Shown piece by piece: positions 12,302-16,180 of a stretch of DNA of 64,000 nucleotides. The stretch is taken from assembly GCA_963745975.1 (NCBI GenBank), contig CAVUZJ010000018.1:119715-183714 (forward strand), given 5' to 3'. Every line of letters starts with the position of its first letter. Position 1 is the stretch's first letter. Under the pieces are notes generated by a model, which did not search any database, was not told where the DNA came from, and saw only the letters and a list, made by a program, of their open reading frames with translations. A program made the position numbers and the translations under genes. This stretch comes from an uncultured Pseudomonadota bacterium (GTDB lineage: Bacteria > Pseudomonadota > Alphaproteobacteria > Acetobacterales > Acetobacteraceae).

Positions 12302-12844
12302 TCAGGCGGCCGCGGCGAGGGCGGGGGCGGGCAAGGGCGCGGGGACGGGCGCGGCGGCGCGGCGGCCGAGCACGACGAGCGTCTTCCCGATCTCGACGGC
12401 GGCCTTGTGGTACTCGCGCCGGAGCAGCCCAAGCTCGCCCTTGGCGCCCTCGAAACGGAAGACCGAGGGGCCGGCCGGCTTGCCGCGGGCCGCCGCGAGC
12501 CCCTCCAGTCGCTCGATCAGCACATAGGCCGCGACCACCGAAGCGATCTCTTCCTCGGCGAGGAAGGTGAGCCGGCCCATCGTGCCGCGATAGACGGCGG
12601 TCACCGGGCGGCAGGAGAGCACGTAGCCGGCCTCGGTGCGGAGGAGGCGCATGTTCTCCCGCACGAGATCGGCGAGGCTCGCGAGCTCGGCGGCCAGCGC
12701 CGCGCGATAGCGGCGCGCGTCCCGGCGCGCCTGGAAGATCGCGAAGCCGCGATTGGTGCCGACATTCACGGTCACCATCATGAGCATCGCGAAGAGGGGG
12801 ATGAGATGCCAGAGCAGGATCGGGCCAGCCGCAAAGCCGTACAT
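12302..12844 (-). CDS. Hypothetical membrane protein
   Basis: ATG at 12844 is preceded by GGGAG 9 nt upstream. It has one N-terminal TM segment (PILLWHLIPLFAMLMMVTVNV). No family recognised. GC3-rich codons. Confidence 0.5.
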   Translation of the reverse strand: MYGFAAGPILLWHLIPLFAMLMMVTVNVGTNRGFAIFQARRDARRYRAALAAELASLADLVRENMRLLRTEAGYVLSCRPVTAVYRGTMGRLTFLAEEEIASVVAAYVLIERLEGLAAARGKPAGPSVFRFEGAKGELGLLRREYHKAAVEIGKTLVVLGRRAAAPVPAPLPAPALAAAA

Positions 12845-12952
12845 CGTTCGGGTCTCCCGGTGAGCGGGGCGGGATTTTAGCACCCGGTACCCACGATCTG
12901 GCCCATCCTAGGGTCTCCTACTTTATACTCCTTTGAATTTACTTGATATTTA

Positions 12953-13276
12953 TGGTGCGGACGGCGGGATTCGAACCCGCACTCCCCACGGGGGAAGCAG
13001 ATTTTCTTGCCACTTCGGCTTCCGCCGCCGCCGCCGGGAGCCCGGCGGCGTTCGTGGTCTGGACTATCCCTTCGCCCCGGCCCGCCTGGGCCGTGCGGGC
13101 GCCGCCCGTCTAGTCTCTACACCTTCCCCGGAACGCCTGCCCGGGGCTTGGCTCGGGATTGGCCCGGCCCGGAGGGGCCGTCGGCGTTCCCCGAATTTGA
13201 GCGGTTCTACACCGCGGGTTTCCCCGCGGGCACTCCGAAGCAAAGTCTGCCGCGTCTGCCGTTCCGCCACGTCCGC
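12953..13276 (-). tRNA. tRNA-Leu(UAA) interrupted by a group I intron (exons 13276..13243 and 13005..12953)
   Basis: Joined exons give an 87-nt class II tRNA: GCGGACG-TG-GCGGAACGGCAGACGC-G-GCAGA-CUUAAAA-TCTGC-TTCCCCCGTGGGGAGT-GCGGG-TTCGAAT-CCCGC-CGTCCGC-A-CCA. All four stems are complementary, the variable arm is long, the T-loop is GTTCGAATC and CCA is encoded. Confidence 0.9.
13006..13242 (-). ncRNA. Group I intron (IC3-like, ORF-less, 237 nt) in the tRNA-Leu anticodon loop
   Basis: Hand-paired core: exon ACUU with IGS GAGU (U.G at the splice site); P2 CCGCGGG-GAAA-CCCGCGG; P3 CCGCUC/GGGCGG; J3/4 AAA; P4 UUCGGG/CCCGAG; P5a CGGCCC-CUCC-GGGCCG; P6 CCCCGG/CCGGGG. Also P7 GACUA/UAGUC within R-like GGUGUAGAGACUAGAC and S-like GGGAUAGUCC; P8 GCCCGC/GCGGGC; P9 CGCCGCCGG-GCUC-CCGGCGGCG; terminal G at 13006. 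Confidence 0.88.
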
Positions 13277-13291
13277 GCGTAAACCCTCCTT

Positions 13292-14209
13292 CTATCCGTC
13301 TTGAGCCACGAGCCGGCAGGCAATGTCGAGCCCGCGCCTGATCAGCTTCTCGCTCGCCTCGGGCGTGCGGAAGGCGCTGTGCGCCGAAAGTGTCACGTTC
13401 TCGAGCGAGGCGAGCTTATGGCCCGAAGGCAGCGGCTCGGCGGCGAAGACGTCGAGCGCGGCATGGGCGAGCCGGCCGGAGGAAAGGGCTTCGATCATCG
13501 CCGCCTCGTCGACGAGCGCGGCGCGGGCCGTGTTGACGAGGATCGCGCCCGGCTTGAGCCGTGCCAGGTGCCCGGCGCCGAGGAAGCCGCGCGTCTCGTC
13601 GGTGAGCAGGAGGTGGAGCGAGACCACGTCGCTCTCGGCGAGCAGCGTCTCGAGCGGGACGAAGGCAACGCCGGGTATGGATTTCGGCGTGCGGTTCCAG
13701 GCCAGGACGCGCATGCCCGAGCCGCCGGCGATGCGCGCCACCTCGGCGCCGATGCCGCCGAAGCCGATCAGCCCGATCGTCTTGCCGGTGAGCTCCAGCC
13801 CCTCGGTGCGCGGCCAGCCGCCTTCGCGGATGAGGCGGTCCATGCGCGCCAGGCCGCGCGCGGCCGCCCACATGAGCGCGATCGTGTGCTCGGCGACGGC
13901 GGTGTCGCCGTAGCCCTTGATGATGTGGACCTCGATCCCGAGGGAGGCGAGCTCCTCGGGGTGCATGTAGCTGCGCGCCCCGGTGCCGAGGAAGATGACG
14001 TGCCGGATCCCCTTGCAGGCGCGCATCGCCTCGGTGGGGAGCTGGCTGTGGTCGACGAACACGAAGTCATGGCCGTCGAGCAGGCGGGGCAGGCTCCCGG
14101 CGGGGACGTGATGCTCCTCGTGGAGGGTGACGGGCGGGTCCGTGTCGCGCCGCACCTTCCGATAGACATCGGCGAGCGCATCGCTCGCATCGATGAAGAC
14201 GCCCTTCAT
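13292..14209 (-). CDS. D-2-hydroxyacid dehydrogenase family (NAD-binding)
   Basis: Start MKGVFIDASD at 14209. GKTIGLIGFGGIGAEVARIA (Rossmann), VSLHLLLTDETRGFL, ILVNTARAALVDE, LDVFAAEPLP. The rest of ORF 13292..15841 is antisense to the PBP gene. Confidence 0.88.
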   Translation of the reverse strand: MKGVFIDASDALADVYRKVRRDTDPPVTLHEEHHVPAGSLPRLLDGHDFVFVDHSQLPTEAMRACKGIRHVIFLGTGARSYMHPEELASLGIEVHIIKGYGDTAVAEHTIALMWAAARGLARMDRLIREGGWPRTEGLELTGKTIGLIGFGGIGAEVARIAGGSGMRVLAWNRTPKSIPGVAFVPLETLLAESDVVSLHLLLTDETRGFLGAGHLARLKPGAILVNTARAALVDEAAMIEALSSGRLAHAALDVFAAEPLPSGHKLASLENVTLSAHSAFRTPEASEKLIRRGLDIACRLVAQDG

Positions 14210-14416: not shown

Positions 14417-16180
14417 ATGCCGGCCGGGCGGCGGCGGGGCCGCGCCTGGCGGGCGCTCCGGCTCGGCATCATCCTCGCGGTCTGGAGCGCGCTCGCGCTC
14501 GGGCTCGTCGTGCTCTGGTTCGCGCGCGACCTGCCGAGGCCTGAGGACGCGCTCCTCGCGGTGCGCCGGCCGAGCCTCGAGCTCGAGGACCATGCGGGGC
14601 GCATCTTCGCGACGTACGGCGATGTCGTCGGCCAGCCGCTCCGGCTGGCCGAGATGCCGGCCTACCTGCCGGCGGCAGTGGTGGCGATCGAGGACCGGCG
14701 TTTCTGGTCCGAGCCCGGGTTCGACCCGGTGAGCATGCTGCGGGCCGCGCTCGCCGACCTCCTCGCCGGGCGGGTGGTCGAGGGCGGCTCGACGATCACC
14801 CAGCAGGTGGCGAAGAACCTCTTCCTCACGGACGCGCGGACGCTGAAGCGCAAGGTGCAGGAGGCGCTGCTCACGATCTGGCTCACGCACGCCTTCACGC
14901 GGCGGGAGATTCTCGAGATCTGGCTCAATCGCGTCTATTTCGGCGCCGGCGCCTGGGGGGTGGACGCGGCTTCGCGCATCTATTTCGGCGTCTCGGCGCG
15001 CGATGTCTCGCTCTGGCAGGCGGCCGTGCTGGCGGGGCTGCCGCAGGCGCCCTCGGTCTTCAACCCCCTTGCGGATCCGGCGGCGGCGGCGGCGCGAGGG
15101 CGGGAGGTGCTGGCGGCGATGGCCGCGAGCGGCGCCATCACCGCGGCGGCAGCGCGGCGGGCGGAAGCCGAGATCCATTTTCCCCCGCCCGTGACGGAAG
15201 GCGGCGGCTGGTTCGCCGACTGGGTGGCGGAGGCGGCGCGGCCCGCGCTGCCGCCGGGCCAGGACGCGGTTCTCAGGACGACGCTCGATGGCGGCTTGCA
15301 GGCGACGGTGGAGAGAAGGCTCGATGCGCTGCTCGCGGGGCCGGGCGCCGCGGCCGGCGTGCACCAGGGCGCCGTGGTCGTGCTGGACGCGGCGAACGGA
15401 GCCGTACTCGCGATGGCGGGCGGGCGGGACTACCGGGAGAACCCGTTCAACCGCGCGGTGCTCGCGATGCGCCAGCCGGGCTCGGCCTTCAAGCCGTTCG
15501 TCTGGCTCGCGGCGCTCGAGAAGGGCCTCCTTCCGTCGAGCCCCGTGCTCGATGCGCCGATCGATGTCGCCGGCTACGCGCCGCACGATTTCGAGCCCAC
15601 CTATCTCGGGCGCGTCACGCTGACCGATGCGCTCGCGTTTTCGCTCAACACCGCCTCGGTGCGGCTCCTGCTCAGGGCCGGAGGGCCGGAGGCGGTGATC
15701 CGGGTCGCGCGGCGGCTCGGCATCACGAGCAGGCTGCCGGACAATGCCTCGCTGGCGCTCGGGACGGGCGATGTGAGCCTCATCGAACTCGCCGGCGCCT
15801 ATTGCAGCTTCTTCAATGGCGGGCTCCTCGTCGTGCCGCACGGGCTGGTTGCGATGAGCACCGGCGGGCGGAGCGTTCCGCTCGGGGTGCCGGAGCCCTT
15901 GCCGGCGATCGACCCGAGCTATGCCGCGATGATGGCGAAGATGATGACCGCGGTCGTTTTGCGCGGGACCGGACGCAATGCCGCGATCGCCGGGCGGACG
16001 ATCGCGGGGAAGACCGGCACGACATCGGACTTCCGCGACGCCTGGTTCGTCGGCTGGACGGACGGCGATGTGATCGGCGTGTGGCTCGGCAACGACAATG
16101 CGAGCCCGACGCGCGACGTGGATGGCGGCGGGCTTCCGGCGATCCTCTTCCGCAAGATCGCGCTCGCGATCCCCGGGTGA
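14417..16180 (+). CDS. Class A penicillin-binding protein (glycosyltransferase GT51 + transpeptidase)
   Basis: AVVAIEDRRFWSEPGFDP, EGGSTITQQVAKNLFL, RKVQEALLTIWLTHAF (GT51), then a transpeptidase module with SAFKPF. ATG 14417 (MPAGRRRGRAWRALRLGIILAV...) is chosen because it gives a typical basic + TM N-terminus. GTG 14240 and ATG 14324 are alternatives. Confidence 0.88.
   Translation: MPAGRRRGRAWRALRLGIILAVWSALALGLVVLWFARDLPRPEDALLAVRRPSLELEDHAGRIFATYGDVVGQPLRLAEMPAYLPAAVVAIEDRRFWSEPGFDPVSMLRAALADLLAGRVVEGGSTITQQVAKNLFLTDARTLKRKVQEALLTIWLTHAFTRREILEIWLNRVYFGAGAWGVDAASRIYFGVSARDVSLWQAAVLAGLPQAPSVFNPLADPAAAAARGREVLAAMAASGAITAAAARRAEAEIHFPPPVTEGGGWFADWVAEAARPALPPGQDAVLRTTLDGGLQATVERRLDALLAGPGAAAGVHQGAVVVLDAANGAVLAMAGGRDYRENPFNRAVLAMRQPGSAFKPFVWLAALEKGLLPSSPVLDAPIDVAGYAPHDFEPTYLGRVTLTDALAFSLNTASVRLLLRAGGPEAVIRVARRLGITSRLPDNASLALGTGDVSLIELAGAYCSFFNGGLLVVPHGLVAMSTGGRSVPLGVPEPLPAIDPSYAAMMAKMMTAVVLRGTGRNAAIAGRTIAGKTGTTSDFRDAWFVGWTDGDVIGVWLGNDNASPTRDVDGGGLPAILFRKIALAIPG

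Follow-up and report, generated by a model that had tools for sequence, protein, structure and literature searches.

The question raised by this locus is what fills a 447-nucleotide (nt) 'intergenic' gap in contig CAVUZJ010000018.1 of an uncultured Acetobacteraceae bacterium, and which transfer RNA (tRNA) reads the UUA codons of its genome. As long as no split gene is called, the gap is unexplained and the genome seems to lack a UUA-reading tRNA-Leu. The analysis of the window, that is, of the whole 64,000-nt stretch of DNA, indicates that the gap very probably holds a functional tRNA-Leu(UAA) gene, divided between U34 and A35 by a 237-nt group I ribozyme of the IC3 type with no open reading frame (ORF) of its own. 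The gene is split at this position, the intron belongs to the bacterial tRNA group I family, and its complete P1-P9 fold has been kept by selection.

An interrupted tRNA-Leu(UAA) gene

With default settings ARAGORN reports zero tRNAs across the whole 64-kb window. Its intron mode returns a single gene, tRNA-Leu(taa) at c[12953,13276], with a 237-nt intron at 34/35. On the minus strand the 5' exon reads GCGGACGTGGCGGAACGGCAGACGCGGCAGACTT (13276..13243), while the 3' exon reads AAAATCTGCTTCCCCCGTGGGGAGTGCGGGTTCGAATCCCGCCGTCCGCACCA (13005..12953) and supplies the last two anticodon bases, A35 and A36, together with the long variable arm, T arm and discriminator A, ending in an encoded CCA (12955..12953). 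The joined exons form an 87-mer that is called tRNA-Leu(UAA) by ARAGORN, with a class II fold and the anticodon UAA. The wobble base U34 (13243) is at the same time U(-1) of the 5' splice site, and the terminal intron G, omega-G, lies at 13006. The locus is identical in two independent ENA metagenome assemblies compared with the window.

As the intron mode of ARAGORN yields false calls, the tRNA call required independent support. Inside an FtsK-like ORF of the syntenic contig L132 (3634-3958) the program places a 'split tRNA-Asp', which was rejected at no more than 6.4 bits (filters off) with R1, the intron covariance model described below. At least 16 split Leu(UAA)-like genes are moreover labelled Phe, Stop, Ile, Ser or Lys via ghost exons, the miscalled loci including L005, L016, L017, L019, L038 and L045.

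Syntenic relatives supply such support. Homologues of the D-2-hydroxyacid dehydrogenase family protein encoded beside the tRNA gene, used as an anchor, were found and their surrounding loci fetched and compared. Where anchor identity is 89-80% (L124-L128; also L028), an intron-bearing tRNA-Leu(UAA) gene lies next to the dehydrogenase gene, the introns of L124-L128 measuring 238-266 nt and scoring 100-116 bits with R1. Where it is 73-76% (L129-L131), the tRNA-Leu(UAA) gene is uninterrupted and reads ...GACTTAAAATC.... A further locus, L132, was found by scanning metagenome contigs for the exact spliced junction of the lineage's exons. It has the same gene order, an anchor identity of 79% and a tRNA gene without the intron (best ribozyme score 6.4 bits, filters off), which scores 61.9 bits on the Rfam tRNA model (cut-off 29) and whose tRNA body is 100% identical to the joined exons of the window over 84 nt. 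All uninterrupted syntenic genes (L129-L132) read GACTT-AAAATC through the predicted junction, and the splice junction is confirmed by the intron-less allele of L132, which equals the joined exons.

The original prediction, which placed the gene on the minus strand of the window, had given the exon and intron coordinates and sequences exactly to the base. Its identification of a tRNA-Leu(UAA) gene with an intron at U34|A35 agrees with ARAGORN, both on the native locus (in intron mode) and on the exon-joined 87-mer, and with the empty site in L132. It had also expected standard callers to miss the gene, and neither default ARAGORN nor Rfam at its cut-off gives any match. Its high-GC alphaproteobacterial host is in line with a window GC content of about 70% and with an Acetobacteraceae-like affiliation, indicated by L028 and by the anchor-protein homologues, which are labelled Acetobacteraceae, Rhodospirillales or Rhodopila.

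The intron as a group I ribozyme

R1 was built from 12 curated bacterial tRNA-intron seeds of Williams and covers the P3-P7' core in 141 positions; its input excluded this window and all fetched loci. A full-length MAFFT alignment of the seed introns (A2) misplaced P1 and P2 and was trimmed to the P3-P7' core (A3) for the model. R1 matches the window at 13206..13059 (minus) along its whole length (positions 1-141 of 141) and scores 107 bits (E=2.8e-28), far above chance level, the runner-up match in the 64 kb being 7.6 bits.

The Rfam model Intron_gpI (RF00028) finds nothing over the whole window at its gathering cut-off (50 bits). A permissive local search gives 32.4 bits (E=1.9e-6) over model positions 48-158 only (P3 to P7 5'), and the Rfam check suggested in the original prediction thus came out weakly positive, with a partial local match below the cut-off. 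This sub-threshold score is a weakness of the model and not evidence against membership, because 50 bits is reached in just 3 of 18 clear homologous tRNA-Leu introns (50.9-53 bits; L006, L007, L011, L018, L021, L028, L030, L032, L040, L047, L061, L063, L074, L079, L092, L095, L098 and L108) and because its seeds, according to Williams (2020, bioRxiv 10.1101/2020.01.27.920355), include none that is bacterial. Williams worked with thresholds of 18-20 bits. Since most of the class is missed by Rfam, its tRNA-Leu introns are left unannotated, and the authors of tRNAscan-SE themselves state that this class escapes detection. With default ARAGORN, Rfam at its cut-off and tRNAscan-SE all blind to them, genes of this kind are probably missing from the annotation of many alphaproteobacterial and acidobacterial genomes.

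The fold was examined in a sequence-only MAFFT alignment of the window and 89 homologous introns (A1; 90 sequences, to which the counts in this paragraph refer). All 76 proposed pairs from P1 to P9b are standard in the window. Across A1, 86.7% of the structure cells are paired, a share that falls to 32-46% if the 3' partners are shifted by 1-3 columns, and both sides have changed in 49 of the 76 pairs; none of 500 shuffles attains the observed values. The group I core is present, with P3-P4-P5-P6, P7-P8 and the P3/P7 pseudoknot, plus P1, P2 and P9. In P1, the splice-site pair between U34 (13243) and G (13235) is U.G in 90/90 sequences, whereas the innermost pair occurs as AU, GU, CG, UG or GC; the last intron base is G in the window and in 89/89 homologues. 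Covariation is seen in P3 (UA in 64 and CG in 24 sequences at one position), in the outer stem of P8 (AU in 51 and GC in 34 at one position) and at every pair of P6a (CCCCGG/CCGGGG, 6/6), P9a (9/9) and P9b (4/4), while P4 (UCGGGG/UCCCGA) and P6 (GCC/GGU) are invariant. The strands of P7 match the Azoarcus blocks GAGACUA and UAGUCC in the seeds; their invariance in A1 is uninformative, because the search pattern demanded P7.

The helices listed in the original prediction are all present and fully paired, except that its P8 was mis-registered. The proposed GCCCGC/GCGGGC does not exist in L028, the nearest relative; the register conserved in the clade is CGCCC/GGGCG with CGGCCC/GGGCCG. Its P4 (UUCGGG/CCCGAG) exists, and its register departs from the curated one only by a single pair at either end, a difference of no consequence. 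The U.G pair at the 5' splice site and the terminal G had been recognised correctly, as had a 237-nt ORF-less intron of the Azoarcus/cyanobacterial IC3 type, given the R1 score and the lack of an internal sense ORF. Folding of the single sequence to minimum free energy (MFE; -129 kcal/mol, z-score -2.4, about 70% GC) recovers P2, P4-P6, P8 and P9a and misses the P3/P7 pseudoknot; at 70% GC this result is not decisive.

No homing endonuclease ORF was found in the 237-nt intron, and no ORF of the locus has a Pfam match. The ORFs over the locus, which the original prediction had rightly described as spurious, span 12933..13304 (+), 13007..13282 (+) and 13270..13064 (-) and comprise 123, 91 and 68 amino acids (aa), respectively; the last of these, which begins in exon 1, is the sole sense-strand ORF overlapping the intron. 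Gene callers left the locus empty in both source assemblies. The features of the locus are collected in Table 1.

Table 1. Positions of the split tRNA gene, its intron helices and the adjoining anchor gene in the window.
Feature	Positions	Strand	Evidence or remark
5' exon of tRNA-Leu(UAA), tRNA positions 1-34 (34 nt)	13276..13243	minus	ARAGORN intron mode; same as uninterrupted L132 gene
Group I (IC3-type) intron, 237 nt, no endonuclease ORF	13242..13006	minus	R1, Rfam, blastn to 89 introns, covariation
3' exon of tRNA-Leu(UAA), 53 nt	13005..12953	minus	ARAGORN; comparison with L132
P1: exon ACUU and intron U (13246..13242) with internal guide GGAGU (13236..13232)	13232..13246	minus	
P2: 7 base pairs (bp), GAAA tetraloop	13212..13229	minus	Compensatory changes at 7/7 pairs (90 sequences)
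P3 5' strand CCGCUC, followed by J3/4 AAA	13199..13204	minus	Pairs with 13107..13102
P4-P5-P5a-P6-P6a domain	13121..13194	minus	Inside Rfam and R1 alignments
P7 5' strand G(A)GACUA, bulged A	13111..13117	minus	Pairs with 13066..13061; putative guanosine-binding helix
P3 3' strand GGGCGG	13102..13107	minus	
P8 hairpin: CGCCC/GGGCG, GCA bulge, CGGCCC/GGGCCG, AGGC loop	13073..13101	minus	
P7 3' strand UAGUCC	13061..13066	minus	
P9 domain: P9 CCAC/GUGG; P9a 9 bp, GCUC loop; P9b 4 bp, GGAA tetraloop	13010..13057	minus	
Synteny anchor: D-2-hydroxyacid dehydrogenase family gene, 305 aa	14209..13292	minus	Pfam PF02826; gene call in L001

Predicted splicing, selection and competing explanations

By analogy with the studied introns in Azoarcus tRNA-Ile, cyanobacterial tRNA-Leu and Bartonella tRNA-Arg, a precursor of about 324 nt would be transcribed, perhaps on one RNA with the dehydrogenase gene upstream. 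Once the intron had folded, with its guide GGAGU and the exon ACUU(U) forming P1 and thereby putting a U.G wobble at the 5' splice site, a free guanosine held in P7 would attack after U34. The terminal G (13006) would next replace it in that pocket, and the 3'-OH set free on U34 would attack after this G, joining the exons to an 87-nt tRNA that reads UUA and UUG codons and releasing the intron.

The conservation of the locus argues for a maintained and functional ribozyme and tRNA in the window. The nearest match for both intron and exons, L028, a metagenome-assembled genome (MAG) labelled Acetobacteraceae, has exons 100% and an intron 89.5% identical, and across the clade of intron-bearing loci exon sequences show no more than 1-3 nt of difference, some being identical. 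In the seven closest intron-bearing loci 96.4% of the structure cells are paired, and variable columns number 68 of 123 among unpaired positions versus 35 of 148 among paired ones. This reading is suggested because pairing is kept, variation is biased towards loops, the exons are nearly identical and two assemblies agree.

Several points weigh against a functional split gene. Catalysis and splicing in this organism are deduced from relatives, and the tRNA census covers the 64-kb window rather than the whole genome. The Rfam Intron_gpI score of 32.4 bits is under the gathering cut-off of 50. No promoter-like or terminator-like site adjoining the gene was detected in a scan of 12700-13500 for sigma-70-like promoters and intrinsic terminators; the tRNA may be co-transcribed with the upstream dehydrogenase mRNA, whose stop codon lies 15 nt ahead of tRNA position 1 (spacer 13277..13291), or a promoter may lie within that gene. 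Finally, the canonical 11-nt-type GAAA receptors of most relatives are replaced in P5 and P8, and the tertiary contacts are consequently not those of the textbook.

The replaced receptors would fit a decaying relic, with a split tRNA gene reduced to a pseudogene and UUA/UUG codons read by a tRNA from elsewhere, as would the indirect case for splicing in this organism and the intron-less allele with the same exons in L132, which makes the intron dispensable at the DNA level. Such decay is nevertheless improbable, given that every helix is intact in the window, that its core shares all its nucleotides with active relatives, that substitutions in the seven-member clade avoid stems or preserve pairing, that the exons of the clade are identical or nearly so, and that the altered P5 and L9 elements are themselves kept across the clade, a pattern resembling co-variation rather than decay. 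Because the P5/P8 receptor elements are non-canonical, the intron might also splice in the cell without being efficiently self-sufficient, requiring an RNA chaperone or protein cofactor, or high Mg2+ in vitro. This is unlikely on present evidence, although the P8 (CCCGCA..CGGGG, GCA bulge), P5 (GCCGAC..GGGC) and L9 (GGAA) of the clade speak for it, and some dependence on protein cofactors in vivo is presumed for group I introns (Hausner et al. 2014, as quoted in PMC7717549). On the other side, very GC-rich helices (about 70% GC, MFE -129 kcal/mol) and full peripheral hairpins suggest that the RNA folds stably by itself, L9 and P5 seem to have changed in a co-adapted way, and no maturase-like gene lies within or adjoining the intron.

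ORFs as long as 123, 91 and 68 aa could also mean that the locus codes for protein (12933..13304 (+), 13007..13282 (+) or 13270..13064 (-)) and resembles an RNA gene incidentally. This is hardly credible, since a GC content of about 70% favours long spurious ORFs, none has a Pfam match, the gene callers of both assemblies left the stretch empty, R1 matches at 107 bits, and the homologues show non-triplet indels and paired compensatory changes, which is an RNA pattern. That the split tRNA is an artefact of ARAGORN's intron mode or a chimera of assembly gains some colour from the false tRNA-Asp in L132 and from Leu loci miscalled Phe, Stop or Ile. Its probability is nonetheless close to nil, and it is refuted by the independent ribozyme evidence (Rfam local match, R1), by the empty-site allele of L132 identical to the joined exons, by two assemblies with identical sequence and by L028 and L124-L128, which have this architecture at the corresponding locus. 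A functional, intron-split tRNA-Leu(UAA) gene accordingly stays the preferred explanation.

Across the 90 sequences exon and intron identity are positively correlated (Spearman 0.49), a result that fits either largely vertical descent or transfer of the locus as a whole. In the Acetobacteraceae-like lineage inheritance of the intron seems to be chiefly vertical, interrupted now and then by its precise loss or gain. The tRNA gene of L132 occupies 384-467 of Joint Genome Institute (JGI) contig Ga0335075_10076826, does not encode CCA and ends in ...GCATCA. The flanks of L132 are closest to those of L127 and L128, both of which bear the intron, and this comparison points to a recent, precise and endonuclease-free intron loss or gain.

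Several side observations concern the elements of P5, P8 and L9. In the window and L028, P8 carries CCCGCA..CGGGG, P5 carries GCCGAC..GGGC, and the L9 loop is GGAA, not GAAA; P8 in most relatives has CCUAAN. The canonical receptor, CCUAAG..UAUGG, was found in neither P5 nor P8 of the window, a peripheral feature that varies in the family and on which membership does not depend. The GGAA of L9b (13023..13020) is common to the whole clade of the window (L028, L124-L128) and goes with the P5 element GCCGACGG..CCGGGC (13185..13181 and 13164..13162), while outgroup Leu introns combine a GAAA L9b with a GCUAA(A/C)GG..CCYAKGC receptor-like motif. A second GGAA lineage (L059, L101, L109) has CCUCACGGG..CCGGUGG. 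In the window, L028, L125 and L126 the CCUAAN..NAUGG receptor of P8 is swapped for CCCGCA..CGGGG with its GCA bulge (13096..13094), and L2 remains GAAA despite this change. The combined changes in L9b, P5 and P8 look like natural tetraloop/receptor co-variation, and the GGAA loop of L9 with GCCGAC..GGGC in P5 could be a natural tetraloop/receptor pair not yet characterised.

Known relatives, distribution and genomic neighbourhood

The window intron is a further member of a well-known and common class, the mechanism of which is well understood from Azoarcus and cyanobacteria. Its joined exons, which give tRNA-Leu(UAA), and its insertion point between U34 and A35 place it in Leu.3Ug, one of the four classical classes of Williams (2020, bioRxiv 10.1101/2020.01.27.920355), to which the 89 homologous loci likewise belong. 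The class shares with the window the tRNA-Leu UAA host, the CUU|...g|AAAA insertion, U(-1), omega-G, the P1-P9 layout and the GAAA loop of P2. The seed Ncf2.Leu.3Ug is 85.6% identical to the window intron over aligned columns; the window differs from it in sequence, and its clade has the GGAA L9 and the non-canonical P5/P8 receptor elements. Identities to proteobacterial seeds in other isoacceptors are 84.9% for tRNA-Thr (Rba53), 83.6% for tRNA-Arg (Rba190) and 80.4% for tRNA-Lys (Mpe6).

The IC3 intron in tRNA-Ile(CAU) of Azoarcus sp. BH72 (seed Aol6.Ile2.5Ug), which self-splices and serves as structural reference for small group I ribozymes, is 80.0% identical over aligned columns. Both introns are high in GC and ORF-less, both have the P3/P7 pseudoknot with a bulged A in P7, and the blocks CAAAUUCGG, CCGAGCCAAGC, GAAGGUGUAGAGACUAGACGG and UAGUCCAG are identical. 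The Azoarcus intron differs in its position three nt further 3', between 37 and 38 (Williams' position 5 versus 3), in being 30-35 nt shorter with a simple P9 hairpin, and in possessing the receptors CCUAAG..UAUGG in P5 and P8. Alphaproteobacterial tRNA-Arg(CCU) introns (Agrobacterium, Bartonella BbgpI; seeds Rur1, Bbo3) are 66-81% identical and resemble the window copy in their IC3 core, lack of an ORF, phylum-level host and invisibility to tRNAscan-SE, but differ in host tRNA and loop position (Arg, Williams' position 5). The Bartonella tRNA-Arg intron splices in vivo and in vitro (PMC7717549).

The intron in cyanobacterial and plastid tRNA-Leu(UAA) genes (Anabaena/Nostoc) has the same host gene, insertion site and IC3 architecture as that of the window, yet the Synechococcus elongatus copy (Sel1) is 71.5% identical over aligned columns, which is less than the 80-85% found with proteobacterial Arg, Thr, Lys and Ile introns. 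Cyanobacterial copies have GGUGCAGAG where the window's family has GGUGUAGAG, and their P9 region is also different. The cyanobacterial intron reportedly self-splices (work of Paquin and colleagues, 1997), and accounts of the tRNA-Leu(UAA) intron usually treat it as a trait that arose long ago in cyanobacteria and plastids. A tentative and rather doubtful alternative is that it might characterise Alphaproteobacteria and Acidobacteriota no less than cyanobacteria and plastids, the non-cyanobacterial copies being nearer to proteobacterial Arg, Thr, Lys and Ile introns than to cyanobacterial Leu introns. The contrast in identity is perhaps inflated by base composition and the sequences are short, for which reasons an independent origin is not claimed. 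If the proteobacterial affinity were true, an IC3 intron would have been independently inserted, or transferred, into the very same anticodon-loop site, and its presence and absence at one syntenic locus of Acetobacteraceae would offer a natural system for intron gain and loss without an endonuclease.

The distribution was assessed by one pattern scan of species-representative genomes, with a pattern in which a P7 region of the Azoarcus type had to precede G|AAAA and from which the GGUGCAGAG variant of cyanobacteria was excluded. At least 120 species carry this intron core. Among the 120 matches listed, 89 contain a tRNA-Leu(UAA) according to ARAGORN, with an intron of 200-267 nt and the invariant junction CTT|...G|AAAA, and 16 more show the same Leu-like architecture (...GACTT|...G|AAAATC) by a regular-expression check only. 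By the labels of their database records, these 89 loci among the matches listed belong to Alphaproteobacteria (55), Acidobacteriota (23), unclassified Proteobacteria (5), Gammaproteobacteria (3) and other groups (3); the alphaproteobacterial hosts include Sphingomonas, Caulobacter, Brevundimonas, Bradyrhizobium, Reyranella, Azospirillum, Acidocella, Rhodobacter and Hoeflea.

The statement of the original prediction that tRNA group I introns are only sporadic in proteobacteria is therefore outdated, as the core occurs in at least 120 species, mostly Alphaproteobacteria and Acidobacteriota, and the class had been catalogued already, with 5,292 such tRNA introns listed by Williams (2020, bioRxiv 10.1101/2020.01.27.920355). 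Review-level statements, which speak of a 'few alpha- and beta-proteobacteria' as non-cyanobacterial hosts, greatly understate how frequent the intron is outside cyanobacteria. A single locus adds little scientifically, and its value lies mainly in annotation, with syntenic Acetobacteraceae contigs with and without the intron, among them one empty site with identical exons, as a by-product. Vepritskiy and colleagues reportedly described a gamma-proteobacterial tRNA-Leu intron in 2002.

One locus from the scan, L106 (Acidobacteriota MAG CAVQZU010000061.1), has a tRNA-Leu(CAA) gene with a 226-nt intron after C34 (GGACTC|AGACC...ACG|AAAATC). Its P1 has a Watson-Crick C-G pair at the splice site in place of the U.G wobble, which corresponds to the unusual class 'Leu.3Cg' of Williams. 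By Williams (2020, bioRxiv 10.1101/2020.01.27.920355) this class is reported from Proteobacteria only, whereas L106 is labelled Acidobacteriota.

Downstream of the tRNA gene, the CCA is directly followed by an AT-rich spacer of about 45 nt (TAAATATCAAGTAAATTCAAAGGAGTATAAAGTAGG..., 12908..12952) in a genome of about 70% GC, and the 3' end of the tRNA is precisely where nucleotide homology with L028 breaks off. Relatives have different genes downstream, encoding a 180-aa membrane-like protein without Pfam match in the window, DUF488 in L028, L124-L126 and L132, and a DDE transposase in L129. The pattern marks the tRNA 3' flank as a small recombination hot spot; a genomic island at this end was considered and rejected, as merely one or two genes are replaced and no integrase was seen there. 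On the other side, the dehydrogenase gene in the clade of the window lies between tRNA-Leu and a PBP1A-type gene (14417..16180). In Acidocella (L108 and L112) the intron-bearing tRNA-Leu gene adjoins the PBP1A-type transglycosylase/transpeptidase gene, with no dehydrogenase gene between them, and the neighbourhood is only partly conserved across Acetobacteraceae.

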